Assembly (NCBI GenBank): GCA_045605805.1
Contig: JAZUQR010000027.1
Coordinates: forward strand, 32,001-96,000
DNA: 64,000 nt
Direction: 5' to 3'
From: Alphaproteobacteria bacterium
Lineage (GTDB): Bacteria; Pseudomonadota; Alphaproteobacteria; CAAHEQ01; UBA3637
The stretch's first letter is position 1, and each line of letters starts with the position of its first letter. The position numbers and the translations under genes are program-made. Of this stretch, positions 14,462 through 59,467 are shown in pieces. Under the pieces are notes generated by a model that had not been told where the DNA came from, did no database searches, and saw only the letters and a program-made list of their open reading frames with translations.

Positions 14462-15616
14462 TTATCTCCCTTTCACCGCTTGAATAATCGCCCGCACAGC
14501 ATCATCTGTTTTTGTTTTGATAATAAACGGCAAACGAGATTCAAATAAAACCCGTTGACCGATTTCAGCATTCATTCCGTCAATACGCACAACAATCGGC
14601 AACCCAACAGCCATCTCCGGCGAAGCAGCAATAAGGCCTTCTGCCAACAAATCACAACGAGTTGTTCCCCCAAAGATATTGATAAGCACACCATCCACAT
14701 TGGGTTCAGATAAAACCAACTTTAATGCCTTTGTCACCGTTTCTTTTGTGGGCTTTGTTCCCACATCCAACAAAGCAGCCGCCCAACCACCTTTGCGTTG
14801 AATCAAATCTAAGGTTGCCCAGCCTAAACCAATACCATTTACAACACAAGCGATATTGCCTTTAAGTCCCATATATCGGAAATGATTCTGTCTGGCCAAC
14901 TTTTCTCGTTCCTTACCAACCCGAGATTCAATTAAAGAAACCAGCTCTGGAAACTTACCCACAGTATTGGGATCAAAAACCAAACGCCCATCCAAAACTT
15001 TCAAAGAACCATCTTTTAATACAACAATCGGTGATAATTCAACAGCCACCGCCCCATAGTGTTTGAACAACCGATATGTTTTTTTCACAACACCGGAAAA
15101 AGGACAAGACTTTGGCGCCTCTTTACCATAAATAAAGGCCAACGCTTTGTCCATCACAACAGCATTCAATCCATCTGTTAAAACAAAAGATTTGGATTGT
15201 CCCCTGTTGTTTTCAAGTGTAAACATCTCACATTGTTTTTCAAAGTTCACCCGAAAAATCAACCGACATAAAATATCTGCCTGATCAAAACCGGCTTCAA
15301 TATAAATCTTTTGCACTTCAAACAAAGGATGCATACCTGCAATCCAATCGGGCTTTGCAAACAACTTGGCCGCCACCGCAGCCACCTGTTTTTTATCCGT
15401 CACACAAGCATATCCATCCACACAGGTATCTGCCTCTAAAACCCGACCGTATGAACGATGCATATCCATTACTTGGGCCCGCAAAAAGTAAGGTCCTCTG
15501 CCCAATTTAGAAACAAGACAGTCCGCCTCCTCTGGGCTGTAAGCCACTGCCCCTTTTAACACAGGCAAACCAGCCTGCTTAAAAATGCGTTTGACATGAT
15601 ATTCTTGTAATTCCAT
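14462..15616 (-). CDS. sucC: Succinyl-CoA synthetase beta-like protein, ATP-grasp motifs degenerate
   Basis: MELQEY start, GNIACVVNG.GL, LDVG and NIFGG..RCD present; GGRGK missing. Confidence 0.8.
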   Translation of the reverse strand: MELQEYHVKRIFKQAGLPVLKGAVAYSPEEADCLVSKLGRGPYFLRAQVMDMHRSYGRVLEADTCVDGYACVTDKKQVAAVAAKLFAKPDWIAGMHPLFEVQKIYIEAGFDQADILCRLIFRVNFEKQCEMFTLENNRGQSKSFVLTDGLNAVVMDKALAFIYGKEAPKSCPFSGVVKKTYRLFKHYGAVAVELSPIVVLKDGSLKVLDGRLVFDPNTVGKFPELVSLIESRVGKEREKLARQNHFRYMGLKGNIACVVNGIGLGWATLDLIQRKGGWAAALLDVGTKPTKETVTKALKLVLSEPNVDGVLINIFGGTTRCDLLAEGLIAASPEMAVGLPIVVRIDGMNAEIGQRVLFESRLPFIIKTKTDDAVRAIIQAVKGR

Positions 15617-15677
15617 AGAAAAACCCCTTTTATATAAAAAGAGTTTGGCATAAAAAACAAATAAAATCAAGGAAAAA

Positions 15678-43644: not shown

Positions 43645-44628
43645 CTATGTAATTGCTGTAATTGCCCGAATATTGCCATCCCGATTGATTTGCACCACAC
43701 GCAGTTTTTCTTTCATTTCTTTATGAGTCTTTTCCTGATCCAAAGCCGGATTGGAATGCATAATCCGAGAAATAAAAGCCTGATAAGCAGCCTCAGGATT
43801 TTCGGCGTGAATCGTGGCAAAACAATTTTCATGCCCCGAGTTCATCAACTCCCAAATAGCCCCGGCATTTGTGGTAGAAATCTCTCCTCCAATAATGGCA
43901 TCAGGCGTAAAACGCACAACCAAATCCACCACTTGTTTATAATCAAACTTGTTGTTTGCTTCTGTACGAGCCAACACCAAATGCACTCGGTTGGGTTGAT
44001 GCACAATCAATTCACGGGTATCCTCAATCGTAATAATACGCTTATGTTCATCCAAAATCTTAAGCATATTATTCAAAAAAGTCGTTTTACCGGTAGCCGT
44101 TCCCCCACTGATAAGAATATGATCCCCCCGTTTAATAGAAAGCAGTAAACGGTCATAAGGATCATCCGGATCTTCCACATTTTTTAACCGATTTACTTGA
44201 CGCAACCGCCCGCCTTGAACAAGGCCAAATTGATCCAATTTAATATCCACATCCGGTTTATAAACACGAATATCCAAGGCAACGCCACCTTCCAAATCAT
44301 CATCATCATATTTCACATTCTGGCCAATAATGCCTGCAAAACGATGGCCCCCTGGAAGTTCAGTATAAACAGCCGGCACGCCCACTTCTTCTCCAAAGGG
44401 TTTGTCTTGACTGTTGGAAATGATATACATCAAATTACGCAAATACTCCCGTGTCAATTTTGGGTCTTCGTAATAATGCCACGGATGAGCATGTCTGCCC
44501 CGTAAACGCAACCAAATCCCCCCTGGGTTATTCACAGCAACATCTTCCACATTATCCTGTGAATACCAATAAGCCAAAGGTTTCAATACCATTTCTAAAA
44601 TGCGTTGCGATTCCGGCCGTTTTCCCAT
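43645..44628 (-). CDS. virB11: VirB11-family T4SS ATPase
   Basis: Walker A GGTATGKT, Asp box TIEDTRE, Walker B PDAIIGGE and His box TIHA. Confidence 0.9.
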   Translation of the reverse strand: MGKRPESQRILEMVLKPLAYWYSQDNVEDVAVNNPGGIWLRLRGRHAHPWHYYEDPKLTREYLRNLMYIISNSQDKPFGEEVGVPAVYTELPGGHRFAGIIGQNVKYDDDDLEGGVALDIRVYKPDVDIKLDQFGLVQGGRLRQVNRLKNVEDPDDPYDRLLLSIKRGDHILISGGTATGKTTFLNNMLKILDEHKRIITIEDTRELIVHQPNRVHLVLARTEANNKFDYKQVVDLVVRFTPDAIIGGEISTTNAGAIWELMNSGHENCFATIHAENPEAAYQAFISRIMHSNPALDQEKTHKEMKEKLRVVQINRDGNIRAITAIT

Positions 44629-44638: not shown

Positions 44639-47600
44639 TTAAAAATAACGATCATCGTCTTGATAAATAGGAGGAGAAACAGGATCAACCTTTCTGTCTT
44701 CTGTATCCTCTGGTACATAGATTTTGTCTGATTCCTCTTGCTCTTCCTCTTGTTCCTCCGTTTCTTCTTCATCAGATTTTGTTCTTTTTTCCACCCAAGA
44801 ATCATTCACAGAAGGCAATTGCGCAGCACTTGGATCACCAAGTCCTTGATCTTCCAAATCTTCCACATCATCATCCACCGAACGCAACCATAAATCCGTA
44901 TTGGAAAAAGCGGTTAAACGAGTTCCTGATGGCACATACAAAATGTTTGGAACTTCACCAGACATTTCCATAAGTTGGCCCCAAATATCCTTAAAATTAT
45001 CAATAAACATTTTGCGTATTTGAGACCCAGGAGTTTCAGATGTCGTTGTGCCATTACTAGCCGTTGAAGAAGAAGCAATCACAGATTTTTCGTTCAGTTC
45101 AGTCAATTTCAAAACAATAGCTTCACCAATACTGCTGCCCACAGGCAACAAAAACTTCCGCATCAACTGCATATCCAAATAAGCGGCCACACCCCCTCGT
45201 CCTTGTGCATCGCCCGAAACGGCTTCAAACTTAAAGGCAGCCCCATCAGGACGAATCAACCGATTCCAAGAAATATCAATTTTGGCGGCTTGATCTGTGC
45301 CAAACTCCATGGCTGAACCAGACAATGAACCAATCAACCGACTGCCGGCAGGAATCAAAATATTGCGTCCTTCTTCGGCATAAATATGTCTTTCCACAAT
45401 GGCCGTCACAGGGGCAGTTGGATATCGGGTATCAATAGAACGCACTAATACCGCCGGAATAGCCTTATCAGCCAACAACACTCTGGACATATCCACAGAC
45501 CATGTAGAAACATTTTTATCCACATCCACACTTGACCAATCCTTGTCTTTTTTGCCTTTGGCTTTGGCTTGAATGGCTTTGCCAGGAAGAATCGTTGGAA
45601 CAGACCCCATTTTTTCCTTCATTTTAAGGCGTCTCTTTTTTTGTAAATCCAAAAATTGCTCTTTAACTTCATCCGGAATCACTATTTCTTTTGGGGGTGG
45701 TGGCGGCTCTCGGTATTCAGGACTTGTTTTATCAGTCTCCCAAATATACGGACGCAGAGTAGAAGGATCCCACGCCCCAACAACCTTACCCTCACCATTC
45801 ACAAGCATTCCTGTGTCTGGATCAATTTCATATGTCTTGCCCCCCCAAGTGATTTTGCGACCACCCGCTCTTTCACCAATAGACGCCAGCCCACAACGTC
45901 TTAAATCCATGCCAAGCCCCCGGAACCATCCATAATCCGTTCCATCCGGATTATAAACCTTTCCATCTGTTGTGGAAGTTAAAATAATATCACCGGCCTC
46001 ATCACGGATATTTCCGTTGGCTTCCAAAAGCCCCATCTTTTCTTCGCCTGGAATCTTAAACAATTCACAATTAAATAATCTGGCCACCGGCTTGTTGGTT
46101 AAATCATATAGCAACACATAGTCATTCTCATCTCCAAACCCTGGCAATGTGTTTCCATACTTATCAGTCATTGTGCCTGTTGTTTGGTTATAGTATCCCA
46201 TAGAAGTACCGTCTCCAGTTTTAACCTCACCGTCTATGGATATTGTATAATCTAAAGTACCACCCGGATTAAAAATCAATCTATCTTCGTTGGAAGCCAT
46301 CCAACCAATTTTGTTACCGTTAAAATCATAGGCGTCATCATTATCCAAACCACCAATCGTTCCTTGAGGTTTACCATCTGTCCCCACAACACGGCCCATA
46401 GCGTCCACACGCCCAAACATCACTTTGTCGTTGTTAAACACAGGACCACGAGCTCTTAACCGCCCAATTGGTTCACCATTGGCATCACGCAACAATTTAT
46501 CACGTCCCACACAACCAACCACAACGCCATCCGGATTCACCACAGTTGAATCGGGTAAAGTGCGCCCCAAATATACCCCTTTTTCGGAAGTAATCGGCCC
46601 ATAACGCACAATAAAGCCCAACTCTTTACCCATAGGATCGGTAGCCACACCTTTTGGCTGCATCCGGCCAATCACATTGCCTTGACCATCCACAACCGTT
46701 CCATCATAGGCAGTTTGTCCAATAACCTTGCAAGAATTATCCACAACCAAAGTTTCTGGAAGAACACCACCCACTTCTTGCAACTTATCTTTCAAAGTTT
46801 GTGCCTCTTCAAAAGTCAAAGGAAGAGCCGCACCATTGCTGGCAAGTGCAGCAACTTCTTCGCCCGCTTCATTCACAACTTTTCCCAAACCATTCACAAA
46901 TCCCAACACAGAATTAGACAAACTCAACACAGGCAAAAACGGAACAATCTGCCCTTCCAACGGCCGTTCCTTGCCCAAAATAGTGGCATCATCCAAAATC
47001 TGATATTTCACAGAACCAGAAGCATCAATCAAATGACCATCCACGGTTGTGCGCCCTAAAACAGAAGGATTATATCCAACCGGCACCCCTTGAACAACCA
47101 AATGCCCCACATAAGGCATGGTATTATAAACAGCCGGCTCCGACACACCCGCCACACTGCCATCCGGCAACACACGCCCTTTGAAGTTCTTATCAAACAT
47201 CACCGAACCATCAGCCGTCACAACCCCAACTTTTTGGGCATAGTCATCCACAACAAACCCTGTTTTCAAAGGTCCGCCTGCCCAAATTGTTTCAGGTGTT
47301 AAAACCGAAGAAAACGCCATACGAGAACCGATTTTCTGACCATTCACACCCCACACCTGCGCACCAAAACCGGATTCTCCAATTTTTTTGCCAGCTTTGT
47401 CAATAATCGTTTCAGCATTAAAAATACCACCAATCAAAGAGCCACCTTGTTCAACAAACCCATTACCAAAAGAAGTACCAATAACTTTGCCCCCCAACCA
47501 AACAGCACCTGTCCAATCCTCCATACCAAGACTCTTTAAGTTATGTGAATTGGCAAATCCAATCTGAGCCGAAGTCCCAACAACCATTTTATCAGAATCC

Positions 47601-50600
47601 ACAATAAAATCGTTCATCATCAATTCCCCCACGGAACGATTTGTTTGTGGTTTATAAACCAGACTGTCCCGACCAACAACACCCATCAAAGAGGAAGAAG
47701 TTAAACCTCTGGCAAATGGGTTTGTACTATGAATACGCCCCACAACAGACCCTTTGTTCATCACATAATCTGGGGCTGCCACAGTGCCGATTTGACTGCC
47801 GGAAGCCGACACAACAGAACCGGTTTCTGTCATAATACCACACATTTTTTCATCTTCATTCAAAGAATATGCTCCAAACGGCACATAGCCGCCCAAAATT
47901 GTGCCTGCAATGTCATTCACACGATTGTTAAAGGCAACCCGCCCAACAACAGCGTTCATATTCATAACAGAGCCATTAAAGCCGGTCCATCCCATAACTT
48001 CCCCGGTGGCATTCAGGGCCAAACCATTCAAAAGAGGCCGCCCAATTAAAGAAGAATCCGCATTGGTTAAATAAGGCATCTGATTGTATGTCATACCCAT
48101 AAAACCGTTTCCATTATAAATCCCGCCATCAGGGGCCACACGGCCAATAAATAAACCATTTTTATCAACAACCGTTGCATTTTTCACCACAGTACCAACA
48201 ATTTTACCGGCAGCATCAAACACAAAACCATCCACACCCAATTGCCCAACAGTTTTGCCTTCACCATTTTCAACATCACCGTTAAAGCGTACAAATCCCA
48301 TAAAATGGCCATCCAAATCAACAACCATACCCAAAGGAAGAGCCGTACCAACCAAGCGACCATCTACACCCAAAACAGTGCCAAAACCAGACACAGCCCC
48401 AACATATGAAGCATTTTTGTCAAATACAGAAGCCTGATATTGCATACTGTTTTCTGTGGAAGCATCCGGCACAACAAAACCAATCACACCGGCCGAAGAA
48501 ACAACCACAGAGGTTTTATTCCACAAGGCGCCAACCACACGATTATCCGGAGTCACCGCAATTTCATTCGGTAACAAAGAGGCCACCTTAGTCCCATCCA
48601 TCATCACATCCCCTTTGATGGAAACCATACCAACATAATCACCAGAAGAAGATAACACAACCCCTTCACCCAAAACACCACCCATCAATTCATTATTGGA
48701 ATTATACACAGCACCATCTGCCAACACTTTTCCAATCACTTGACCAGAAGCATTGACAACCTGCCCTCGGGCATCAAACCGTCCCAACACAGCTCCTTTG
48801 AAATCCGCAAAATAAGAATCCTTTGGAAAAGCTCGTCCCACAATGCGTGTGGCTGTCATATCTAACACAGTACCATCCGGCATTAAACGCCCCAAGGGTT
48901 TGTTATCCACAGAAAGAGCTTGCCCCATAAAGGCATTATAAGTTCCAATAAGCCGACCATTCATATCAAAAATAAAACTATCCGGATGAACCAAACCAAC
49001 AATTTGGCGGGCCTTATTCAATACCCAACCATTCAAGGTTTGAGTTCCAACTTCGTTCTGTTGCGTATCCATACATTTGGAAGCCTTACAAGTCCAACCG
49101 GTGAATAGACCAACATCATTCAACACAGCCCCATTATAAGTACGAGTATCACCTTGCGAACTTGTGCCGTTTGAATTGACACAACCAATAACCTTGCCAT
49201 TCTTATCAATAATCTGGCCATCATAGCGCACCCGACCGGAAAAATCACCTTTTGGTGAAAACAGCGCCCCTGTTGGTGTTAAAACCCCCAAAGATTGTCC
49301 ATTTGCAGCCAGCGGTTCTTTTTCAAGATTGATACAGCCAATGACATTTCCTTTTTGATCAATCACCTGCCCCGACAAAGACAAAAGCCCCATCAAACGA
49401 CATCCTTCTGCCAAAACCGTCCCACGGGGAACAACAACACCCATCACCACAGAAGAGTCATTTAGTGTATATCCGTCCGAACGCACCTTTCCAATGGGTT
49501 GCAACGCAATTGTCACAACCGAACCATCTGGATAAACACTGCCCAAAACATTACAAGAATTACCCACCACACGACCTTTTTGTAAAACACCACCCAACAC
49601 TTGTTTGTCTGTATAAACACTGCCATCTGGTGCAACATTCCCCATAAGACTTCCCTTGCCATCCACAGCTTTCCCTTCGGAATTGACAAAGCCCAACACA
49701 TTTCCATCCATATCCACAACCAAGCTGTTGCCAATGACAGCCCCAATTGTGTTCATATTCGCATCTACCACATCACCATTGGGCATCACACGCCCCACAA
49801 CTTGACCATAAACATCTTTAACCGATCCATTCAAAGAAACTTCACCAAACGAACGACCGCCCAAACCAACAGCGATACCTTGCTTAACCACAGAACCAAC
49901 CAAAACGCCATTAGTATTCACAATAAAACCATTTTGTTGCAAAAAACCTTGAACCTTTTGTTCCGAATCAATCACAGCACCGGTTGGTAAAACAATACCC
50001 AAAACATTGCCTGACAAATCCATGGCCATTCCCCAAGAACGCAACACCCCAATTTGAATGCCAGCATCATCAAAAACAGTTTGATCCACCCGAGGCGTAC
50101 CAATTTTTTTGCCGGCCCCATCCACAACTTTCAATTCATTAGTCGCCTTATCAACCGTCAACTTACCCACAACAGCCCCTTTTGAATTGATAACCGAAAC
50201 CAAAGGAATGGCCGCCCCAAGCACATTAAAATCCGAATCCACAACGGTATTATCCAATAATAAACGCCCTACAAGCTTACCCTCTTTGTCTTCCACCGTC
50301 CTTGAATCGGTCACAAAACCCAAAAACTCATTTTTCAAATTTAACGCCACAAGTCTTGGTTCTGTCACACCCAGAACTTCCCCCTCGGGATTTTTAACAA
50401 TCCCTTCCTCAGGCGGTTCAGCCCCCTCTGGCAACTCTACTTCTGTACCATCAGGCAACACATAAATCGGTCTTGGCTTTTTTTCGGGTTTATTTTCAAC
50501 ACCACAATTTTCACAACAAACACATTCTTTGGAATCAATAGCTGTTCCCTTTAAGGTAATCTGACTCCGTTCATCCTTCAAAACACGGGAATTGTCTTCA

Positions 50601-51100
50601 TGCCACACAATCGTCAAAGTATTTTGAATACTTTGCACTTTAACAGGTGTCCAAGAAACTTTCAATACACATTCTTCATCCACATCCAATTCGGTACGCT
50701 CCATACAATCGCCCGATAAAACAAAGCCATGTTCAGAAATATCCGCCAAATAGCTTTCCACAAAAACCAACGGGCCGTTTTCTGCCCTTAAAAGAACCGT
50801 AGCTTCAGCCGTAGCCCCCAACACAACATCATCAAATGCAACTTCCTGAGGAGAAACAACCAGCTGCGTTCCATCCACAGAAAAATCGGGCAATTTATCA
50901 TCATCAGAAACATCATCCCCGAAGGTATTTATCACATTAGCAGAAACAGGCTCAGTTTGAATCAAATCAACAGGTTGTTCTTTCGGAGCGGAACACAGTA
51001 CCACAAAAAACAAAATCACAACCAACAGTCCAAACAAAGATAAAATCCATGTGGTTCTGCGTTTTGATTGTGCGGATAAACTTTCGTGACTTGTTGCCAT
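44639..51100 (-). CDS. virB10: Giant VirB10/TrbI-family protein with Ig-like domain and ~1550-aa repeat region
   Basis: N-terminal TM; C-terminal TrbI domain (IPAVL..SID, ILIPAGSRLIG, W.RLIRPDG, D..GR.G, VPSGTR); lies between virB9 and virB11. Confidence 0.88.
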   Translation of the reverse strand: MATSHESLSAQSKRRTTWILSLFGLLVVILFFVVLCSAPKEQPVDLIQTEPVSANVINTFGDDVSDDDKLPDFSVDGTQLVVSPQEVAFDDVVLGATAEATVLLRAENGPLVFVESYLADISEHGFVLSGDCMERTELDVDEECVLKVSWTPVKVQSIQNTLTIVWHEDNSRVLKDERSQITLKGTAIDSKECVCCENCGVENKPEKKPRPIYVLPDGTEVELPEGAEPPEEGIVKNPEGEVLGVTEPRLVALNLKNEFLGFVTDSRTVEDKEGKLVGRLLLDNTVVDSDFNVLGAAIPLVSVINSKGAVVGKLTVDKATNELKVVDGAGKKIGTPRVDQTVFDDAGIQIGVLRSWGMAMDLSGNVLGIVLPTGAVIDSEQKVQGFLQQNGFIVNTNGVLVGSVVKQGIAVGLGGRSFGEVSLNGSVKDVYGQVVGRVMPNGDVVDANMNTIGAVIGNSLVVDMDGNVLGFVNSEGKAVDGKGSLMGNVAPDGSVYTDKQVLGGVLQKGRVVGNSCNVLGSVYPDGSVVTIALQPIGKVRSDGYTLNDSSVVMGVVVPRGTVLAEGCRLMGLLSLSGQVIDQKGNVIGCINLEKEPLAANGQSLGVLTPTGALFSPKGDFSGRVRYDGQIIDKNGKVIGCVNSNGTSSQGDTRTYNGAVLNDVGLFTGWTCKASKCMDTQQNEVGTQTLNGWVLNKARQIVGLVHPDSFIFDMNGRLIGTYNAFMGQALSVDNKPLGRLMPDGTVLDMTATRIVGRAFPKDSYFADFKGAVLGRFDARGQVVNASGQVIGKVLADGAVYNSNNELMGGVLGEGVVLSSSGDYVGMVSIKGDVMMDGTKVASLLPNEIAVTPDNRVVGALWNKTSVVVSSAGVIGFVVPDASTENSMQYQASVFDKNASYVGAVSGFGTVLGVDGRLVGTALPLGMVVDLDGHFMGFVRFNGDVENGEGKTVGQLGVDGFVFDAAGKIVGTVVKNATVVDKNGLFIGRVAPDGGIYNGNGFMGMTYNQMPYLTNADSSLIGRPLLNGLALNATGEVMGWTGFNGSVMNMNAVVGRVAFNNRVNDIAGTILGGYVPFGAYSLNEDEKMCGIMTETGSVVSASGSQIGTVAAPDYVMNKGSVVGRIHSTNPFARGLTSSSLMGVVGRDSLVYKPQTNRSVGELMMNDFIVDSDKMVVGTSAQIGFANSHNLKSLGMEDWTGAVWLGGKVIGTSFGNGFVEQGGSLIGGIFNAETIIDKAGKKIGESGFGAQVWGVNGQKIGSRMAFSSVLTPETIWAGGPLKTGFVVDDYAQKVGVVTADGSVMFDKNFKGRVLPDGSVAGVSEPAVYNTMPYVGHLVVQGVPVGYNPSVLGRTTVDGHLIDASGSVKYQILDDATILGKERPLEGQIVPFLPVLSLSNSVLGFVNGLGKVVNEAGEEVAALASNGAALPLTFEEAQTLKDKLQEVGGVLPETLVVDNSCKVIGQTAYDGTVVDGQGNVIGRMQPKGVATDPMGKELGFIVRYGPITSEKGVYLGRTLPDSTVVNPDGVVVGCVGRDKLLRDANGEPIGRLRARGPVFNNDKVMFGRVDAMGRVVGTDGKPQGTIGGLDNDDAYDFNGNKIGWMASNEDRLIFNPGGTLDYTISIDGEVKTGDGTSMGYYNQTTGTMTDKYGNTLPGFGDENDYVLLYDLTNKPVARLFNCELFKIPGEEKMGLLEANGNIRDEAGDIILTSTTDGKVYNPDGTDYGWFRGLGMDLRRCGLASIGERAGGRKITWGGKTYEIDPDTGMLVNGEGKVVGAWDPSTLRPYIWETDKTSPEYREPPPPPKEIVIPDEVKEQFLDLQKKRRLKMKEKMGSVPTILPGKAIQAKAKGKKDKDWSSVDVDKNVSTWSVDMSRVLLADKAIPAVLVRSIDTRYPTAPVTAIVERHIYAEEGRNILIPAGSRLIGSLSGSAMEFGTDQAAKIDISWNRLIRPDGAAFKFEAVSGDAQGRGGVAAYLDMQLMRKFLLPVGSSIGEAIVLKLTELNEKSVIASSSTASNGTTTSETPGSQIRKMFIDNFKDIWGQLMEMSGEVPNILYVPSGTRLTAFSNTDLWLRSVDDDVEDLEDQGLGDPSAAQLPSVNDSWVEKRTKSDEEETEEQEEEQEESDKIYVPEDTEDRKVDPVSPPIYQDDDRYF

Positions 51101-51110: not shown

Positions 51111-52769
51111 TTATTTCACCCTAATCACCGAACAAGAATAACCTCTTTTTCCTAATTTACGACACAGAGCATCGGCCATTTCTGCATTATCCAACGAACC
51201 AACACGCAACCGGAAAGTATCGGCCACGCCACCATTTGCCGCTGTATCCACAGAATAATATGGAACATATCCGCCAAGCAAATCAGCATTACTGGCATAA
51301 ATTTGTTCCCATAATTTTTCCAATTCACTAATTTCCGGTGAAGTTCCAAACTCAACCGAAATGGTTTCCTCCGGCACCACAGACAAATCAGAAACATCAT
51401 ATCCCACAGCAGGCACAGAAACAGGCGCACTGCCCCCAAAAACAGGCTCAGTGTTCACCACACCACAAGCTGTCGTTGAACCATTACAATAAGGATTGAT
51501 AGCACCTGCATAAGGATTCAATCCCCCTGTTTCGGTGGCATATCCTAAAGTCATCGCACCCGCATTCTGAGCCGGCACATAAGGATTTTGACCATGCAAT
51601 ACCGAACCACCCTTCACCGTCACTTCTGAATTCGGTACATCAGATGCCTGTACAGGCAATTGATTATGATACGCATAAGGCTGTTCGGCATAACCCGAAT
51701 AGTCGGTATATTCCAAACCGGCAGCCGGATCTCGTCTTAATTTAATACAAATCACCTTTTGTCCATTGCGCAATACCAAATCACCAATAGCTTCCACAAC
51801 AATCAATCGGCTGTTTGCGCCCCGAGTTCTAAACCCAACAGGAACTTCTGTTCCTTGAACAAGCAGGCTGACCACAGGCCGTTGTGTCATAGTTAAAGCC
51901 TTTGGCCCCAAATCAATATAAGTAAAGATATTATCCCGCCACACATTGTCCGGAGCAATATCCACATCATCCGGATTCGGCAAGAACATATCCAAATCAA
52001 ACTTTAATTGTTCAGGATCCATCGGAACCGTATTCCCCCATTCGCTTGCCTTATTTTGCGCAACCGAGTTGGCCTTTGTACTGACCGCAGTAGCCACACC
52101 AGAATGATTGATAGGCATAGAAGCCATTGTGGAAACCAACGATTCATTTTGCAACTGCCCCCCATTTGCAACGGGCGTCCATCTTGATCCCACTAACACA
52201 TCCACAACCGTTTGTGTAATTTTATCCGTATTAAAAGTTTCACTTCTTAAATAAAAAGCATAGCGATTACCGGAATGCCCAAACACAATCATATTACCAT
52301 CCACACCCAAAGAAGAAGGATCGGCATAAATCATCACAGAATTGGCCGACACAACCTCTCCATTAAAAGCATCAGGTGAACCAATATGCACTTTTTCAAT
52401 CAATTCCCACGAAGGCAAATTGATTAAAGTCATCATACCCTCCCGCACACGAATCGGCAAAACCGTATCTGGCGTCCAATTATACTTTGAATACCCTGGT
52501 TTAGATTGACCTGCCCCCATATGTGCCAAAGGATTATTCCACGCCTTTTGTTGCATCCCCAAAGCATGAATATAATCCAAATTCACATCATTATATTCAC
52601 CACTGGAAGCAGCAATAGCATCAGCAATTTGTTCTGATTGAGTATCTGTCGGCAAATGTACCTCAGCTTTAACAGAATTTGAAATCAGGCCCAAAATCCC
52701 TGTCAAAACTGGCAAAACTCCCCTAAAAAATACATTTTTATTCACCGGTTCCTCCTTATATCTAGACAT
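51111..52769 (-). CDS. virB9: VirB9/TrbG-family protein with C-terminal SPOR-like domain
   Basis: N-terminal hydrophobic segment; GNMIV...NRYAFYL, P..VWRD..FTYI, P.VS, LVLRNGQKVICI; tail FRLRVG....A..LC.KL..RG.SC. Confidence 0.82.
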   Translation of the reverse strand: MSRYKEEPVNKNVFFRGVLPVLTGILGLISNSVKAEVHLPTDTQSEQIADAIAASSGEYNDVNLDYIHALGMQQKAWNNPLAHMGAGQSKPGYSKYNWTPDTVLPIRVREGMMTLINLPSWELIEKVHIGSPDAFNGEVVSANSVMIYADPSSLGVDGNMIVFGHSGNRYAFYLRSETFNTDKITQTVVDVLVGSRWTPVANGGQLQNESLVSTMASMPINHSGVATAVSTKANSVAQNKASEWGNTVPMDPEQLKFDLDMFLPNPDDVDIAPDNVWRDNIFTYIDLGPKALTMTQRPVVSLLVQGTEVPVGFRTRGANSRLIVVEAIGDLVLRNGQKVICIKLRRDPAAGLEYTDYSGYAEQPYAYHNQLPVQASDVPNSEVTVKGGSVLHGQNPYVPAQNAGAMTLGYATETGGLNPYAGAINPYCNGSTTACGVVNTEPVFGGSAPVSVPAVGYDVSDLSVVPEETISVEFGTSPEISELEKLWEQIYASNADLLGGYVPYYSVDTAANGGVADTFRLRVGSLDNAEMADALCRKLGKRGYSCSVIRVK

Positions 52770-52821: not shown

Positions 52822-53526
52822 TTATTTATCTTTTTTTTCCAGAGAAAATCTATCCACTACAAAACCAAGCGGATTTTTTAAGCGATCAGCCCATGTCAAA
52901 TTTTTACGAGTTGGACGAAAAGAAGTTTCCAAGGTAGCAACCACTTCAAGCTCTTTGGGTTCAGCAGATGTCCGATCTGTATCAGTGAACTTTAATACAG
53001 CCGTCCATCGATCCGAACCATTTCTTCCCCCAGTGTGGGTTCTGCCCAAACTTGAAATCCGAACATTTCGGATAAAGTTGTCTTCAAAGGCCAAAGTCTG
53101 CCCCGGTTTAGATTCCTTTTCCACAAAATCATCATATACAGATTGAGAACTCATCCAAAAAACAACACCGGTAGACCCCCACCGTTCCTCCAACTCTTTC
53201 AAATCAGAACCAATACCGTAACGAGCCAACAGATATTGCCGCACCAACGATTCACTCAAATCCTTGGAATCCAATGTTTCTGCATCAGGGCGTTTAATGG
53301 CAATAATTTGCTGATCTTTATTCTGAACTTCCAAATAAAAAGGTTGCACACGCAACACAGGCGTCACATTAGCCAAAGCAATCAACAGAATAAGGTCACA
53401 CACAAGGGCCAAAACCATCATCACAACAAACGCCCGAGCCATCCACAAATAACGTTCTTCCTGCAACATGGCATGTGGTTCACGAACAGCTCTTTCTTCT
53501 GATTGAATAGGTGTATTTTCGGACAT
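52822..53526 (-). CDS. virB8: VirB8-family protein (copy 2)
   Basis: Single TM, QYLLARY and C-terminal KNPLGFVV (NPxG). Confidence 0.85.
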   Translation of the reverse strand: MSENTPIQSEERAVREPHAMLQEERYLWMARAFVVMMVLALVCDLILLIALANVTPVLRVQPFYLEVQNKDQQIIAIKRPDAETLDSKDLSESLVRQYLLARYGIGSDLKELEERWGSTGVVFWMSSQSVYDDFVEKESKPGQTLAFEDNFIRNVRISSLGRTHTGGRNGSDRWTAVLKFTDTDRTSAEPKELEVVATLETSFRPTRKNLTWADRLKNPLGFVVDRFSLEKKDK

Positions 53527-53540: not shown

Positions 53541-53717
53541 TTACGAAAAATATCCCACTCCTTCAGGGGCTTTTTTCAATTCCAAACAAGCACAAGGTGA
53601 TTTTTTCAATTCAGAATACTCCATTCCAATGCCCACAGGGGCCTTTTCATAAACCGAACCACAAGCAGCCAAAACAACACCCACCAAGGCAATAACCACA
53701 TAAAAAATCTTACTCAT
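53541..53717 (-). CDS. Small lipoprotein, VirB7-like
   Basis: 58 aa with lipobox VLAAC, KSPCAC motif and AGGAGG RBS; lies between two virB8 genes. Confidence 0.7.
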   Translation of the reverse strand: MSKIFYVVIALVGVVLAACGSVYEKAPVGIGMEYSELKKSPCACLELKKAPEGVGYFS

Positions 53718-53784: not shown

Positions 53785-54402
53785 TCACTTGCGTTCAGAT
53801 TCATCTACCCGAATAACCACAAAACCGTTTGGATTTGCAAAACGCTTTGCCAGCACAGCCCGAGACGGCCAATAATTAAACTCAACAACAAGTCGTTTTT
53901 GTTTTTTTTGCCACTGTAAAAAATTATCAAAGGTATATAAATCATAATCAACAGAATAATATCCAGATTCTCTTGTAACCGATAAAATATCTATGGTTTG
54001 GGGCGGCATATTGGCTATTTTTTCAAAAGAAGGATATTCTTTCAAAAAGGCCTGATAGCTGGCAGGCGAAGAAAGATAAGATAAAAGTCCATAAGCCCCC
54101 CACCTTCGTTCCATTTCTGCCACATCTGGGATACGAGTATAACGCAAGTCTAAATAATAACGCAATAACATTTCATCCGTTTGTGTGCGATTCACACCTT
54201 CCAGCGGATATATTTGCGCTAAATCCTCGTTAAAAACATTAAAAACACGATCCTTATCTTGAAAGACCTGCGCCACAACCTGTATTTGCAAAACGGCCTG
54301 AAAAACGGTCACAGTAAGGAAAAAAGTAAAAATCCACAAAACCCAACATACAAGCATAAACAAACGAGTTCTGTACCACGGACTTTGTTCCTTAAAGGAC
54401 AT
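53785..54402 (-). CDS. virB8: VirB8-family protein (copy 1)
   Basis: Single TM, YYL.LRY, ERRWG shared with copy 2, and ANPNGFVV (NPxG). Confidence 0.75.
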   Translation of the reverse strand: MSFKEQSPWYRTRLFMLVCWVLWIFTFFLTVTVFQAVLQIQVVAQVFQDKDRVFNVFNEDLAQIYPLEGVNRTQTDEMLLRYYLDLRYTRIPDVAEMERRWGAYGLLSYLSSPASYQAFLKEYPSFEKIANMPPQTIDILSVTRESGYYSVDYDLYTFDNFLQWQKKQKRLVVEFNYWPSRAVLAKRFANPNGFVVIRVDESERK

Positions 54403-54413
54403 AGCAATTCTCC

Positions 54414-55580
54414 CTACAAAGGCTTGCAAAAATCAAAATTACCTTGAAGGCTTTGTGCCTGTTGTACACTTTGATTGACCATTTTTTCCGACTCTGTTTG
54501 CAGGGCAGAAATCATCTTGCGATGCGAAGTATTTTCAGCCATTTTCTGTTCTACCTCAAAAGCATTGGTTTCGGTCAAGAAAACAATACCGTTTTCATCT
54601 TTTTCCATCGCATCAATCAACACTTGTTGTCGTGCCTGTGGCGAATACTGGTCAAAACGCTGCATTTCGGCAAAAGCCTCAGGGAATTGAGATTCAACTG
54701 CTGACAACACCTGTTGTTTGGTTTTGGAACGGGTATTGCGACGAGCCGCAGCCTTTGGATACTTTTGATCTTGCAAATTTAATTTTTCAACATACGCCTT
54801 TGCCTCTTCCAAATAGACAGATTTTAGGCTCTGTAAAGATTTGCGCACTTGACGCACCTCTGACACCTTTTTGGGATCAAACGCAGGCATCTGAATACCC
54901 ACCTTGGATAATTTAGCCACAAAATCAGAAATCATTTTTTTATAAGTTTTTTCAAAATCTGATTGCGCTATCCCCATATTGTGTTTTGAATCATCTGCCA
55001 GAACAAGTTCTTCCAAACCAAAACCAACGAGATTTTCTTTAAGATCTTCCGGTACCTTCCGCTTTTTCTTATCAACAGGTTCCGCCCCCCATTTTTTGTT
55101 ATTTTCAAGGGTGTCTGTAATCAAAGCAACCTCAATATTCTTTTTGCGTTCCAACAAAGATTGGCGATCCAATGCAGAAGCGGGAAAAATGCTGTCAGGC
55201 GCATAAACCCTGTTGGATTGCATATTTTTGGTCTGTTCTTTATAAGCCGCACTAACCTTTTTCAAAACCTCTGATGCATTCTTAAACCGACCAAAGCGTT
55301 TTTCATTACATTCAAAAATCTCATCAAAATAGCTTTGAGCCTCTTTAACATTTTTCAACAGCTGATCATGTTGTTCGGCAAGCGTTTGCAAATCCGGCAA
55401 TTGAGTCATCAAATTATGCACATCCAAAGCCTTGTATAACGAGTCATTATGCTCAGGCAGAACCTTGGTTAAAGTCCGTGTTTCAATTTTAATCACAGGA
55501 GGAGCCCCAAAGCGAAGTGCCTCAGCACTGGTGCTAATCAAAACAAAAGAACAAACACAAATCAATAAAGTCTTTTTCAT
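54414..55580 (-). CDS. Exported coiled-coil hypothetical protein in the T4SS cluster
   Basis: Signal peptide (..SAEA), helical, 388 aa. Confidence 0.7.
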   Translation of the reverse strand: MKKTLLICVCSFVLISTSAEALRFGAPPVIKIETRTLTKVLPEHNDSLYKALDVHNLMTQLPDLQTLAEQHDQLLKNVKEAQSYFDEIFECNEKRFGRFKNASEVLKKVSAAYKEQTKNMQSNRVYAPDSIFPASALDRQSLLERKKNIEVALITDTLENNKKWGAEPVDKKKRKVPEDLKENLVGFGLEELVLADDSKHNMGIAQSDFEKTYKKMISDFVAKLSKVGIQMPAFDPKKVSEVRQVRKSLQSLKSVYLEEAKAYVEKLNLQDQKYPKAAARRNTRSKTKQQVLSAVESQFPEAFAEMQRFDQYSPQARQQVLIDAMEKDENGIVFLTETNAFEVEQKMAENTSHRKMISALQTESEKMVNQSVQQAQSLQGNFDFCKPL

Positions 55581-55583
55581 TTT

Positions 55584-56642
55584 TTATTGCCCTCCTCCTG
55601 CAGAAAATTCAGGTCTGTTATCATTTCCAACAATTTCAAGTTCTTTTTTCAATGGCTTGAAATCAAGTTCCAAAGTTTCGGCCCGCACTTTTGTTCTGAC
55701 GGCTAAAACATTCATTTTCAAAAGCATTAAAGAATCATATAAAGCCCGTCTGGTTGCCAAAGTGTTCAACGCTTGGTTTTTGGAATTATATTGTGCCTGT
55801 ATCTTGGCATCCATCTCTGCCAAAGAAGATAACTGACGTTTCAATTCCATTGCCGAAGCCATAGCCTTAATACTGCGCTGTTGCGCCCGATAACGAATTG
55901 CCCGTTGTTCTTTGGCCACATTTTGTAAAGAACGTTGATCTTCCAAAAGTTCATTTCTGCGATATTCCATCAATTCACGAGGCGAAGCAGACGAAGCATC
56001 CTGCAAGTTTTGATACATATCTTTATCAAAAGACACTGCCTGCAAACGAGTTGGATCAATACCCAATTTATCCATAATCGCCACAATCAAATTTCTATCA
56101 GCCGGCCCAATCCATTTATCAGTCACATGGCCTTGAACCCCCGCAAAATCGGCCGTGATTTTGGTTGAATCACGCATAAACTGGTTCACCGCCGCATGTC
56201 CCAATTGAGAAACGCCAGATAACCCATCCAAAGTAATGCCCAACCCAACCCACGCAGATTCAGCATGAATAGGTGCTTGCGCTGTAGTTGTAAGGGTCTG
56301 ACTCATTTTCCAAGAAGGAAGATACTGTTTCAGCTGTTGAATCGGCCAGCCCACTGCCATACCAGTTAATGGTGTAGACAGTGCCATATCCACCATAGCC
56401 GCTGAATCACCAGCATCGCTAGAATAATCTGCACCACCAGCCGTATGTTCCACTGGAGTGGCTTCAGGATTTGATTCAGGTAAATCCTTTGAAGTATCAA
56501 AGGCCTGCGCTCGTGAAGTATCCGCTAGTGATTCTCTAGTTTCTCTACCCACTAGGAATTCTGTAATTCCAGCAGTCACCGGCATCACCAAAACACCGTT
56601 TAGCAAAGAAATCGCACAAACACCTAATAATAATTTTTTCAT
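55584..56642 (-). CDS. Exported protein with VirB5-like helical C-terminus
   Basis: Signal peptide; C-terminal ~100 aa share a pattern with neighbours. Confidence 0.6.
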   Translation of the reverse strand: MKKLLLGVCAISLLNGVLVMPVTAGITEFLVGRETRESLADTSRAQAFDTSKDLPESNPEATPVEHTAGGADYSSDAGDSAAMVDMALSTPLTGMAVGWPIQQLKQYLPSWKMSQTLTTTAQAPIHAESAWVGLGITLDGLSGVSQLGHAAVNQFMRDSTKITADFAGVQGHVTDKWIGPADRNLIVAIMDKLGIDPTRLQAVSFDKDMYQNLQDASSASPRELMEYRRNELLEDQRSLQNVAKEQRAIRYRAQQRSIKAMASAMELKRQLSSLAEMDAKIQAQYNSKNQALNTLATRRALYDSLMLLKMNVLAVRTKVRAETLELDFKPLKKELEIVGNDNRPEFSAGGGQ

Positions 56643-57487
56643 GCACCTTCTCCTTCTTCATCATCGGCCACATCACCTGCACCTGCCTCACCTGCACCGG
56701 CATTATCGGCCTCATCTGTTGCCGCCACATCTTCTTCTGTCATCAACAAAATGGGTTGAACACTTAAAAACTTGGCCGCATCCAGTTCCATCAATTGTAT
56801 CTGCATCACAATATCCGCCATCAAGGCCCGATTGATTGCCTTCCATGTCTGGTCCGTTCCGGAAGTCGCCCCAATAGAGCCATCCCCGTTGATATCAGAA
56901 GAAACCACATTCATATCCTCAATCAACTTTTCTTGAACGGTATAAGCCGTTTTAACATATTCCTTGGCAATTTTGGTTAAATATTTTTCTCGTTCTTTAC
57001 GAATAGCCTCCTGTTTTTCTTCTGTGGCATCGGCATTATTTTCCAAAAAGAACATCTCCTTCACAACTTGCTCCATATCGGCCGAATCAGTCAGTTTTTT
57101 ATTCAAAGGCGAATAAGGCGTTTTAATTTTATCGGTTAAATAGGTATTATGTAAATAGGTATAAGTATCCAAGGGCATAGTGCCGGAATCTGGTTTGCCT
57201 GTCCCTGGTTCAGACACATACGAAGTGGTACCATCCACCAAAGCCCCAACATCGGCCTGTGTCACATTTAACCTCGCCCCCATTTCGGGCTCTTCCCCCA
57301 AGGCCAGCAAATTTAGAAGAGCCGATCCCGTGTTACGCACAGAGTCAGTAATTGATACAGGATCTGATACTTTGTCAGGCACCACCTTCATCGTCTTAGG
57401 AGGAAGGTCCGCCCCCCACACATCCGAAACATATACGGAAGATAAACATCCCAAAGCAATCAAAAAACGAAACATAAAACTTTTCAT
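56639..57487 (-). CDS. Exported protein with VirB5-like helical C-terminus
   Basis: Signal peptide (..DVWG); TEEKQEAIRKER..A..QLMELDAAKFL. Confidence 0.6.
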   Translation of the reverse strand: MKSFMFRFLIALGCLSSVYVSDVWGADLPPKTMKVVPDKVSDPVSITDSVRNTGSALLNLLALGEEPEMGARLNVTQADVGALVDGTTSYVSEPGTGKPDSGTMPLDTYTYLHNTYLTDKIKTPYSPLNKKLTDSADMEQVVKEMFFLENNADATEEKQEAIRKEREKYLTKIAKEYVKTAYTVQEKLIEDMNVVSSDINGDGSIGATSGTDQTWKAINRALMADIVMQIQLMELDAAKFLSVQPILLMTEEDVAATDEADNAGAGEAGAGDVADDEEGEGA

Positions 57488-58344
57488 TCTGTATCCTCCT
57501 TCAATTCAGAAACATCCACACGATCAATACCGCTGAAAATGATATTTCGATACGATTGCGCCCGTAAATCATCGGCATATAAAAATAACATATCCACCGC
57601 AGCCGAAGAAGCATAAACCGATAAATCGCCCAAACCGGCTCCAACGAATTCCGCCAAAGTCTCTTTGGCAGCCACACTGTTCACCAATTTTTCCAAATTA
57701 TCATAATTGGCATCCACATCCTGTAAATAAGAATCCGCCATACTGGATGCGGCCGTGGATGAAGCCACCAAAACCTCGTTTTGCCGTGCCTGAGCACATT
57801 CAGAAGGTTCACACTCTTCACCGGTTCCCACCGAACAGACGCAATCTTGGTTCACAGCCAAATCATCCGATACAAACATATACGAAGCCACATTCTCACG
57901 CACCCGATCAAAAGTATCGCCTTTTTTACCCATTTTATCCTTGGCATCTTCCCCCAAAACCAAAGTACCATCTTCTTCACTTTGTGTAATAATGGCAATT
58001 GTGCTGTCTGGGATAGACATAGCCAATTCTTCTGCCTTCATAATTTCTTCTTGTGCAGATTCGGGCGTTTTGGTATCACATCCTGAATTGCCGGTTGCCG
58101 ACACGCCACAATGGCCTTGCTCACGATACATCCCAATGTTTGTTTGCAACTTTTCTAACCCATTTGTCACATCATAATGAATTGTTTCCTGCTTACGATT
58201 CCATTCCCGTGCCATATAACCAAACGTCGTTTCCATAGCAGTCTGATAAAGACAACCAATAGATGGACACCAACTGGCTGCATAACAAGGGGCAGCACCA
58301 AGCAACCCTATACATCCCACCGAAACAAATAAAAGTTTTCTCAT
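57484..58344 (-). CDS. Exported Cys-containing protein with VirB5-like helical C-terminus
   Basis: Signal peptide MRKLLF..CYA; ARQNEVL..A.S.A..LEKLV. Confidence 0.6.
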   Translation of the reverse strand: MRKLLFVSVGCIGLLGAAPCYAASWCPSIGCLYQTAMETTFGYMAREWNRKQETIHYDVTNGLEKLQTNIGMYREQGHCGVSATGNSGCDTKTPESAQEEIMKAEELAMSIPDSTIAIITQSEEDGTLVLGEDAKDKMGKKGDTFDRVRENVASYMFVSDDLAVNQDCVCSVGTGEECEPSECAQARQNEVLVASSTAASSMADSYLQDVDANYDNLEKLVNSVAAKETLAEFVGAGLGDLSVYASSAAVDMLFLYADDLRAQSYRNIIFSGIDRVDVSELKEDTE

Positions 58345-58360
58345 AATCGTTCCCCCTTTG

Positions 58361-59467
58361 TTATTCAACCATCTGCAACGCACTGGCCGCTTCATTGGCC
58401 ACCTGTTGACCTTGCACCATATTCAACAAGTTCAATCGTTGAGCCAAAGTTAAATCCAAGCTCACCAAAACTTTTGTGTTGGCCACAACACTGCCCCCGC
58501 CCGATCCGATATAAGTAGAAAGGCGGTCAAATTGTGCTTTTTCCGAAGCCGCAAGACTGGAAGCCAAATCAGCCCGAGCCACACCAGCCGTCCCCACCAT
58601 TTGAATGTGTGCTTTTCGTCTGAAATCAGCCTTGCGCTTTTCCTCCTCAGTCATTTGATCAGAAGGGTCACTGCTGTTGAAGGAACCACCAAAAACCGAG
58701 TAATCTGAAAAAGCGGATTGCATAGAAGACCCAAAGTCTGTGATATAACCACTCCAAACAACAGAAGAATTAGATGTTTTATTGGTATCCGTGGTTATCT
58801 CTTGTAATTCGGCAGTTTTTGTGCCAAAACCCGCCTGAATCACCGGATTAGCCCCAATCAACTCTTCGGCTTGTGTTAAAGGGCTTTCGGCCACATCTTC
58901 CAAAGCCTCTAAGCCCACATTTTTCAAAGTGGAAACATGCACTTCGGTTTCATCCAAAGTTGCACTGACCATATTACAGAAAAAACCGCCTGTACCACCC
59001 GATTCTTTAATTTTTTCACATTCGGATTCAATACTGCCCAAACTACCAATATGACGAATCTGAGACTGTAATTCCGGAATATCTTTACTCCATTGGGCCT
59101 CTTTCGTGCGGGCATCATTTAATTGCACAATATCCAAAGATGCCCCCGCCACATCCCAATTCAATCCAAAAGTATCTGAACCAGTAAATACATAAGGAGT
59201 AGGCTCTCCTTCAGGAGTCACAACAACTCCAGGCTTCGATATAGAAAAGTGTGCCTGCACGAAAGAAGTCACACCAGTAATGAAACCCCAGGCCGCCAAT
59301 CCTTGACTTAATGCCTTTTGTGCTTTGGCCGTACCAGAAGAAACTTGGTTGGTTGCCAAACCACCTTGTTGCCACACCTCACCTTCTTCGGCCACGGCCA
59401 CCATCACACCGCCCGACACGCCACACAACAGCAATGCTGACATCAAAAGTTTTTTACTGAATTTCAT
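58361..59467 (-). CDS. Exported protein with VirB5-like helical C-terminus
   Basis: Signal peptide (..AVA); TEEE..RR..A.A..NTKVL..QQVANEAASALQ. Confidence 0.6.
   Translation of the reverse strand: MKFSKKLLMSALLLCGVSGGVMVAVAEEGEVWQQGGLATNQVSSGTAKAQKALSQGLAAWGFITGVTSFVQAHFSISKPGVVVTPEGEPTPYVFTGSDTFGLNWDVAGASLDIVQLNDARTKEAQWSKDIPELQSQIRHIGSLGSIESECEKIKESGGTGGFFCNMVSATLDETEVHVSTLKNVGLEALEDVAESPLTQAEELIGANPVIQAGFGTKTAELQEITTDTNKTSNSSVVWSGYITDFGSSMQSAFSDYSVFGGSFNSSDPSDQMTEEEKRKADFRRKAHIQMVGTAGVARADLASSLAASEKAQFDRLSTYIGSGGGSVVANTKVLVSLDLTLAQRLNLLNMVQGQQVANEAASALQMVE

Follow-up and report, generated by a model that had tools for sequence, protein, structure and literature searches.

The 64,000-nucleotide (nt) window analysed here (positions 32,001 to 96,000 of contig JAZUQR010000027.1, assembly GCA_045605805.1, Alphaproteobacteria bacterium) carries a group of type IV secretion system (T4SS) genes in which the gene flanked by virB9 and virB11 encodes a protein of 2153 amino acids (aa). 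The question raised by this locus is what a protein of such size is in this position, and what its additional residues might serve for. Among T4SS subunits, only VirB10 reaches across both membranes, coupling the inner-membrane ATPases to the outer-membrane pore. To our knowledge, repeat-expanded VirB10s have previously been known only from the Cag and Dot/Icm machines, the repeat parts of which are unresolved and poorly predicted. A sequence-only reading of the window had proposed a VirB10 enlarged by repeats at 45760-50400, an interval that corresponds to aa 233-1780, i.e. to the repeat array. From the results given below, it is highly likely that the protein is a genuine VirB10 with a conserved array of beta-hairpins.

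The gene occupies positions 44639-51100 on the minus strand as a single intact open reading frame (ORF) of 2153 aa plus the stop codon, with 0 internal stops; its start lies 10 nt past the virB9 stop. The layout of the protein was determined using Pfam, NCBIfam, and two AlphaFold2 (AF2) models built on 38-row orthologue alignments. The C-terminal barrel domain (aa 1875-2072; 44885-45478, minus strand) matched the Pfam family TrbI (PF03743) with 86.4 bits against a gathering cut-off of 35, over profile positions 2-188 of 188. From the PDB, the C-terminal half used as a profile retrieved the structures of ComB10 (2bhv, 4e-23), CagY (3e-9), TrwE (3e-8), X. citri VirB10 (4e-7), and TraF (3e-4). 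The AF2 model of the TrbI domain used for Foldseek was only moderately confident (predicted local distance difference test, pLDDT, 29-82) and matched, at probability 1.0, 6gyb_C (target TM-score, TMt, 0.54), 3jqo_A (0.51), 7o3j_A (0.50), 6x6s_AY (0.50), and 2bhv_C (0.46). Two long helices (~aa 1974-2008 and 2024-2049; pLDDT 29-54) are predicted in an antenna-like position within the domain. The profile, fold and neighbourhood evidence thus bears out the earlier assignment of the protein to VirB10.

The remaining parts outside the array were delimited on the AF2 models and on an alignment of 51 sequences, namely the query and 50 complete orthologues between 2100 and 2300 aa, longer and shorter ones being excluded. 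The protein begins with a short, conserved cytoplasmic tail and a single transmembrane helix (aa 1-37; 50990-51100, minus strand), recognized from the sequence, AF2, and invariant columns. The hydrophobic stretch of ~aa 17-37 was read from the sequence and the model (AF2 helix 8-36); S7 and S9 of the tail are invariant, and KRR precedes the helix. A disordered segment (aa 38-75) is followed by a PapD/ASH-like Ig domain (aa 78-188; 50537-50869, minus strand; pLDDT 86-92). Pfam ASH reached 27.4 bits on aa 80-165, barely at the cut-off of 27, and the Foldseek matches were the ASH/PapD-like structures 6fvi (TMt 0.58) and 2ys4 (TMt 0.64), with probability 1.0 each. C132 and C144 of this domain are Cys in 51/51 aligned sequences. 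Next come the CVCCENC motif (aa 193-199) and a Pro/Glu-rich linker (aa 189-231; 50408-50536, minus strand), defined by the sequence and Cys columns, with a pLDDT below 50 at aa 191-204. In this low-confidence linker just past the Ig domain, the CxxC pair C193/C196 (50513-50524, minus strand) is also Cys in all 51 sequences and might bind a metal or link subunits through a disulfide. Beyond the array, the sequence and AF2 indicate a poly-Pro linker (PPPPP at aa 1799), a basic helix, and a lead-in to TrbI (aa 1787-1874; 45479-45742, minus strand). The transmembrane segment, the Ig-like segment and both linkers had all been named in the sequence-only reading and were found as described. The protein ends with an acidic tail (aa 2073-2153; 44642-44884, minus strand; pLDDT <50), in which 30 of 81 residues are Asp or Glu. 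Its end is aromatic-Phe, and a terminal Phe (LF, YF or MF) is retained by most orthologues, reminiscent of the C-terminal signal of outer-membrane proteins.

The array itself (aa 232-1786; 45743-50407, minus strand) extends over 1555 aa and consists of 17-aa beta-hairpin units with the consensus D-G-x-V-V-D-x-x-G-x-V-I-G-x-V-x-P, as found by Pfam, a position-specific scoring matrix (PSSM), autocorrelation, and AF2. The three repeats quoted earlier lie within it: DGSVYTDKQVLGGV at ~aa 492, GQVIDQKGNVIGCI at ~aa 577, and DGTVVDGQGNVIGRM at ~aa 1466. The strongest family match was the Pfam beta-flower family Bflower_2 (PF21785), with 214.9 bits against a cut-off of 38 (E 1.9e-64) in 11 stretches, and Bflower (PF21784) was matched with 44.8 bits against a cut-off of 25. 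DUF3659 (PF12396), previously suggested as a family to compare, gave 13 bits against a cut-off of 24.8 (E 0.096); it is thus marginal in this protein, for which the PF21785/PF21784 family fits best, and is significant in many orthologues (e.g. 129.1 bits in L069). The leads obtained from the ESM Atlas were Bflower/DUF3659/RHS clusters, all sub-0.9, and no structure of the protein itself was present there.

HMMER iteration on the 17-aa unit was unstable, the motif being too short, and a PSSM scan with shuffles (50 per round) was performed instead. It revealed 72 matches in the protein, of which 69 fell within aa 232-1779, compared with 2.9 ± 1.5 in composition-preserving shuffles; the PSSM was trained on the same protein, so that this test is partly circular, whereas the autocorrelation and Pfam results are non-circular. 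The spacing between successive matches was exactly 17 in 46 of 71 cases, and 19 units at near-exact 17-aa spacing follow one another at aa 322-640 without linkers. The BLOSUM62 autocorrelation peaked at lags 17, 34, 51, 68, and 85, with a value of 0.06 at lag 17 versus -0.92 ± 0.06 in shuffles. A higher-order period of 68, 85 or 102 aa, expected of tandem closed flowers, was not found in it; the autocorrelation merely decays with lag. Among the 69 units, 65 have G13, 47 have Asp or Asn at position 6, and 44 have G9; the complete [DNEQ]xxG turn occurs in 33. At the DNA level, Tandem Repeats Finder detected no tandem array in the repeat-coding sequence, its only output being, for the linker and tail, three micro-arrays of 20-21 nt, and a repeat search of the array yielded 24 families of 20-62 nt pieces with 60-85% identity. 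The repeats are therefore old, and their divergence at the DNA level is as the sequence-only reading had stated.

To characterize the distribution of the protein, a word-seeded protein search limited to lengths of 1184-3768 aa (E<=1e-3) was carried out and gave 311 matching proteins. Among the 120 listed, PF21784 and/or PF21785 were present in 120 and TrbI in 119; they belong to metagenome-assembled genomes of Alphaproteobacteria and bear only the names 'TrbI/VirB10 family protein', 'DUF3659 domain-containing protein', and 'hypothetical protein'. In a contig scan that took a single genome for each species, 119 candidate stretches were examined and 106 confirmed. The 80 loci kept for locus analysis derive nearly all from uncultured Alphaproteobacteria in gut or rumen assemblies, for which RF32 and Rs-D84 are conceivable GTDB placements. 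An ORF of more than 1000 aa was present in 76 of them, measuring 2133-2609 aa in 68/76, and the full-length orthologues remain colinear down to ~28% identity. In the other eight, the ORF is cut by a contig edge or possibly frameshifted (L032, L066, and L068), complete at 1273 aa (L069), split (L073, L077, and L080), or unrelated (L071).

In the 51-sequence alignment, the array is colinear unit by unit, with invariant Gly columns and a majority-residue fraction of 0.36-0.67, on par with the Ig domain. Indels are few and clustered near aa 650, 1650, and 1740. The PSSM counted from 58 to 96 units in full-length orthologues, and the repeat number is nearly fixed among them; it is not a trait that varies from strain to strain. 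The description of the array as old, selected and beta-rich is upheld by the diverged DNA, the unit-by-unit conservation, and the AF2 strands.

Two departures from the full-length form were observed. The complete short form of L069 (2598-6416; 1273 aa) has 35 units and the same N- and C-terminal motifs; its array also shows weak Bactofilin, DUF6799, and PARP-like matches. Three species that are more distant encode the giant VirB10 as two adjacent ORFs (L073 9341-18154; L080 8709-17815; L077, ORF2 13106-18160), the parts summing to ~2935-3033 aa. In L073 and L080, the pair of ORFs is located between virB9 and virB11: ORF1 (1243-1293 aa) contains the transmembrane segment followed by repeats, with an Ig-like segment visible in the L073 translation, and ORF2 (1692-1740 aa) contains repeats and TrbI, with a signal peptide-like N-terminus in L073. 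L077 is similar, as judged from ORF2 and tblastn positions only. The repeat units of the split forms are much more regular. These forms fit a modular scaffold, the halves of which could associate without a covalent link.

The origin of the array was approached from the C-terminal 374 aa, which had 3368 matches at E<=1e-3 among 1.84 billion representatives, 87 of them at E<=1e-30. A Pfam scan was made of 36 proteins picked for intermediate length among the 150 listed matches. Bflower_2 together with TrbI was found in 24 of them (584-2406 aa, some probably fragments) and TrbI only in 12 (~580-940 aa, plus a 1278-aa TrbI-T2SSE fusion). The latter, P0217, has TrbI followed by the T2SSE ATPase and is an apparent VirB10-VirB11 fusion without hairpin repeats. 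In a FastTree phylogeny of 248 TrbI domains, all 155 proteins with at least 10 units fell on one side of a single split, together with 18 short proteins (206-584 aa) that seem to be N-terminally truncated fragments; the 75 with fewer than 10 units fell on the opposite side. This topology suggests that the array was likely gained once and then expanded.

In the AF2 models, the array is composed of 168 short strands (~84 hairpins) with pLDDT mostly 85-96, near 90. Each hairpin shows a pattern of a 3-residue strand, 4-residue turn, 5-residue strand, and 5-residue loop, and the position of the [DNEQ]xxG turn agrees with it. The mean pLDDT of the N-terminal half (1150 aa) was 83.8, with a predicted template modelling score (pTM) of 0.73; the C-terminal half (1154 aa) had a pTM of 0.63 and array pLDDT of ~85-96. 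The two independent models were concordant in their overlap (aa 1018-1142). A profile of the N-terminal half found no significant match in the PDB (best E 0.43).

Paired Cys columns provide a further constraint on the fold. C516/C589 are Cys in 49/51 sequences, both being replaced in the same two; C567/C640 are Cys in 51/51; C1457/C1530 are Cys in 47/51, both being absent in the same four; and C1678/C1736 are both Cys in 39/51 and both absent in 12. Columns 415 and 488, which hold no Cys in this protein, are Cys in 45/51 each (per-column counts). The spacing is exactly 73 residues in four of the five pairs and brings position 9 of unit i, the turn Gly, opposite position 14 of unit i+4, which lies in the long strand. 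This regularity suggests that disulfides may staple each hairpin tip to the long strand four hairpins further on. Separate five-unit barrels do not fit, since pairs 516-589 and 567-640 interleave. Because of the interleaved Cys, the 19 regularly spaced units, the lack of a longer period, and the high pTM, the array is probably a continuous stack rather than a series of discrete flowers. It lies between an inner-membrane helix and an outer-membrane TrbI domain, which would place it in the periplasm, and the i/i+4 pairing likewise points to a periplasmic, continuously stacked array.

The genes surrounding the giant virB10 form a T4SS islet on the minus strand, the conservation of which was assessed by tblastn of the window proteins against the 80 loci. 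On one side lies a virB11 homologue recognized by family match (43645-44628; 327 aa; 79/80 loci), with a dUTPase gene downstream of it. On the other side is a virB9 homologue (51111-52769; 552 aa; 75/80 loci), ~twice the usual size, in which CagX (61.6 bits) is followed by a C-terminal SPOR-like domain (20.7 bits, just short of the cut-off of 21). Of 13 orthologues, 11 show the same SPOR fusion at E<=0.01 and 8 reach the Pfam cut-off. Further on are a virB8 homologue (52822-53526; 234 aa; 61.2 bits against a cut-off of 23.2; 69/80 loci) and a small lipoprotein in the VirB7 position (53541-53717), which, when read from the internal Met30 of an 87-aa ORF, has a signal peptide and the lipobox LAAC. 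Its ORF was detected in 69/80 loci, with 47-74% identity across the 18 loci tabulated; the Pfam and NCBIfam scans gave no family match for it, and its position and lipobox only make it a putative VirB7. The outermost gene encodes a 214-aa bitopic protein (53785-54429; 66/80 loci), weakly VirB8-like (Pfam VirB8 E 0.0023, 18.2 bits against a cut-off of 23.2; PDB 4mei VirB8 E 0.68), a possible divergent second VirB8. The order is thus VirB8-like, lipoprotein, VirB8, VirB9-SPOR, VirB10, and VirB11. A P-type gene order had been proposed earlier; its VirB8-VirB9-VirB10-VirB11 part stands, and through the weak VirB8-like match the order would be specifically that of the Rickettsiales rvh islet, not a generic P-type one.

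Rates of divergence are very uneven within the islet, identity to L001 being 93% for VirB11, 72% for VirB9, and 55% for the adjacent VirB10. Upstream of the islet, six consecutive ORFs of 388, 352, 282, 303, 374, and 1203 aa with signal-peptide-like N-termini were observed (54414-63065, minus strand), for which no Pfam or NCBIfam family match was found. By tblastn, they occur in just 6-22 of the 80 loci, with 25-50% identity in the loci tabulated, and may encode rapidly evolving secreted proteins that serve the T4SS as partners or substrates.

Taken together, a VirB10 of a chromosomal rvh-like P-type T4SS, from an uncultured alphaproteobacterium of gut or rumen, in which the hairpin array acts as a periplasmic strut, collar or cage is modestly favoured as the best overall explanation. 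That the array is a periplasmic structural scaffold is in itself an evenly balanced proposition. In this architecture, both VirB10 ends are kept, the cytoplasmic tail and inner-membrane helix on one side and, on the other, the TrbI barrel, which makes up the outer-membrane cap along with VirB9 and VirB7. Where canonical VirB10 has a short, flexible, Pro-rich linker in the periplasm, the PapD-like Ig domain and ~84 17-residue hairpins stand instead. The hairpins would lie in the periplasm, disulfide-stapled from hairpin i to i+4, and stack continuously into a rigid rod or spiral, an 'unclosed' beta-flower instead of a string of closed five-petal flowers. The arrays of ~14 copies might then build a large periplasmic strut, collar or cage tying the inner-membrane anchor to the outer-membrane cap, which would be anchored to the peptidoglycan through VirB9-SPOR, resembling the collar proposed for the DotG and CagY repeat regions. 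The order of the domains, the repeat unit, the confident all-beta prediction and the conservation of repeat number in a large clade come directly from the analysis; the array shape, disulfides, stoichiometry and function used in this scheme are those that we infer. The stalk or cage suggested earlier, which would widen or lengthen the channel, is likewise conjectural. In its most specific form, in which disulfide-stapled hairpin rods form a new rigid periplasmic cage or collar of an rvh-like T4SS that is spread, outside Rickettsiales, through an order-rank group of Alphaproteobacteria from gut and rumen, the proposal is tentative and rather doubtful.

Several observations weigh against this explanation or parts of it. 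The equivalog-domain model T4SS_VirB10 of NCBIfam (NF038091) was not reached (78.6 bits against a cut-off of 220), nor was ComB10 NF038092 (76.5 bits against 300), and the protein is consequently a divergent member of the VirB10 family and an equivalog of neither. The branch uniting the repeat-bearing forms had a support of only 0.47. No VirB2, VirB3, VirB4, VirB6 or VirD4 was found, either in the window or, in the loci, within a distance of 10 kb. The global Foldseek TM-scores to all solved hairpin-repeat proteins were 0.05-0.12, so that no template backs any particular superstructure. The disulfide pairing is drawn from spacing and co-loss only. The ~14-mer state is assumed by analogy with canonical VirB10, the cores of which have ~14 copies (the entries 6gyb, 3jqo, and 3zbi list 14 chains each). 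Finally, by our own estimate, a straight rod of ~84 hairpins at 4-5 per turn would measure several tens of nm, i.e. at least the typical width of the periplasm, and would therefore need to be bent, tilted or tangential.

Other roles of the array were also considered. It might be a glycan- or peptidoglycan-binding solenoid in the style of clostridial combined repetitive oligopeptides (CROPs) or cell-wall-binding repeats, fixing the machine in the sacculus, measuring it or crossing it. Local Foldseek matches of the array included the TcdA CROPs and other large clostridial toxin repeats (probability 0.25-0.51), and the SPOR-like peptidoglycan-binding domain of the partner VirB9 indicates that wall contact matters. 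The TM-scores of these matches were, however, 0.03-0.06, no carbohydrate-binding Pfam family was found on the array, and its units do not have the aromatic residues that typify choline- and glycan-binding repeats. Binding of this kind is unlikely; it is compatible with the scaffold and does not exclude it.

Display of the array at or beyond the cell surface, as an adhesin or a module for contact with host or prey, a role proposed for the repeat regions of CagY, is improbable. According to PMC6761968, CagY decorates the surface of the bacterium and the variable segments of DotG may be exposed there; moreover, the six fast-evolving secreted proteins encoded just upstream suggest an interaction interface nearby. 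The topology of the protein, on the other hand, would make the array periplasmic. Unlike in CagY and DotG, its repeat number is nearly fixed and no recombinable repeats exist at the DNA level, and its conservation is similar to that of the Ig domain. The covarying Cys pairs fit the oxidising periplasm, though they would fit the outside too.

An array folded as an Rhs/YD-type shell enclosing cargo is very improbable, even though the teneurin and Rhs YD shells were the top Foldseek matches of both halves (E 5e-13 to 1e-7, probability up to 0.99, 850-1500 aligned columns) and Pfam RHS_repeat is present in several orthologues (e.g. 45.7 bits against a cut-off of 22 in L080 ORF1). With TM-scores of 0.05-0.11 and a root-mean-square deviation of ~30 Angstrom, these matches share local hairpin geometry alone, and the i/i+4 Cys spacing indicates a narrow stack, not a wide shell. 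In this protein, RHS_repeat (PF05593) had no match at E<=0.1, 'YD' dipeptides number just four in 1555 aa, the DPxGL motif has 0 occurrences, and no toxin or plug domain was found; the Rhs cocoon was rejected for want of RHS_repeat, DPxGL, and a global superposition. A repeat protein joined to a VirB10 fragment by chimeric assembly or annotation, conceivable for an uncultured source and a repeat-rich gene prone to misassembly, was rejected as scarcely credible, since the colinear full-length orthologues in 68/76 loci from many independent assemblies rule out both a chimera and strain-level repeat variation, the flanking genes are conserved across loci, and there are no near-identical DNA repeats to mislead an assembler.

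The rest of the window contains CcrM, ChpT, LolCDE, KDO8P synthase, and OmpA-like genes, which indicate that the host is a diderm alphaproteobacterium. It also holds a ComEC/Rec2 gene (5470-7470), a GspF/PilC-like gene (185-1309), and a 1240-aa ORF with an N-terminal AsmA domain (27376-31098, plus strand). A 347-aa ORF (8530-9573, minus strand) with sub-threshold MORN_2 and Tcp10_C repeat matches may encode another short-hairpin repeat protein.

In the literature covered (mostly open-access articles, partly as titles and abstracts, supplements aside), no link of VirB10 or a T4SS to beta-flower or DUF3659 repeats and no description of this gut and rumen T4SS were found, and PF21785 appeared only in Durairaj et al. 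and its preprint, PF21784 also in a preprint on integrons and anti-phage systems, and PF12396 in one on fungal lipid droplets. The architecture itself is already visible in the public annotation of database proteins. The results show that VirB10 can be expanded by another repeat, a 17-aa beta-flower hairpin that is nearly fixed in copy number and confidently predicted, and that over 100 species-level genomes share this design, all from common, uncultured Alphaproteobacteria of gut and rumen. The beta-flower/DUF3659 family thereby gains a concrete cellular context, T4SS cores are seen to be open to elaboration through VirB10 itself, and an rvh-like secretion system is flagged in a gut lineage of barely known biology. 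If the cage of stapled rods were true, a giant VirB10 would have been invented independently for a third time, the orphan beta-flower/DUF3659 repeats would have their first functional setting, and the unresolved Cag and Dot/Icm collar would have a stand-in that can be modelled with confidence.

Compared with canonical VirB10/TrbI proteins (TrwE of R388, X. citri VirB10, pKM101 TraF, and H. pylori ComB10), the giant form has the same bitopic anchor, Pro-rich segment, and TrbI barrel with a predicted helical projection, and occupies the same slot between virB9 and virB11. The canonical solved chains are 395-406 aa in full length versus 2153 aa here, a fivefold enlargement; the difference lies in ~1700 extra residues (Ig domain and array) in place of the linker, plus the 81-aa acidic tail.

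The closest gene order is that of the Rickettsiales rvh system, in which RvhB10 is of ordinary size (~480 aa). The R. typhi islet comprises rvhB8-II, rvhB7, rvhB8-I, rvhB9-II, rvhB10, rvhB11, and (rvhD4), the rvh genes being scattered in islets, and divergent RvhB8-II proteins are said to be absent outside Rickettsiales, according to PMC4676284. The same order was found here when the putative second VirB8 and VirB7 are counted, and the remaining T4SS genes are likewise not adjacent; in contrast to rvh, a dUTPase gene rather than virD4 follows virB11, the second VirB8 is weak (18.2 bits), and the host is not a known member of Rickettsiales.

As to the repeats, Rhs/YD and teneurin shells resemble the array in their long runs of ~20-aa beta-hairpins with a D-x-x-G turn and gave the best local 3Di matches, but differ in that no global superposition, YD signature, DPxGL autoprotease motif, or toxin domain exists here. 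The beta-flowers (PF21784, PF21785, and PF21786) have been described by Durairaj et al. 2023 (PMC10584680) as ~96-aa closed barrels of 8, 10 or 12 strands with 4-, 5- or 6-fold symmetry and a semiconserved [DNEQ]xxG at the hairpin tips. Many of these barrels surround a C-terminal helix, lipoproteins occur among them, and they have no known function. The hidden Markov model match far above the cut-off, the short antiparallel hairpins, and the tip motif are common to the array, which differs in having ~84 hairpins without linkers or helices inside a secretion-system subunit.

Among giant VirB10s, CagY of H. pylori (~1900 aa) has largely helical repeats. It is likewise a VirB10 enlarged by repeats ahead of TrbI, with a C-terminal domain matching in sequence and fold, and seems to differ in repeat type. 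Its DNA-level repeats recombine, altering the protein between strains, and DotG varies too, as reported in PMC6761968; the DNA of the present array is diverged and its unit number nearly fixed. DotG (IcmE) of Legionella and Coxiella is a VirB10 homologue that also has a repeat-rich middle. The preprint bioRxiv 10.1101/2023.03.22.533729 gives for it 10-aa repeats, [KR]-x-A-G-[FY]-[STND]-x-x-x-[LI], variable in number and with low-confidence models, and proposes the CagY and DotG repeat regions as a periplasmic collar that shares the symmetry of the outer-membrane core. This 10-aa motif has 0 occurrences in the giant VirB10, the unit of which is 17 aa long, nearly fixed in number, and modelled with pLDDT ~90. 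These two sources agree with the earlier mention of CagY and DotG as repeat-bearing relatives, and the protein described here is best read as the third kind of VirB10 expanded by repeats, independent of both CagY and DotG.

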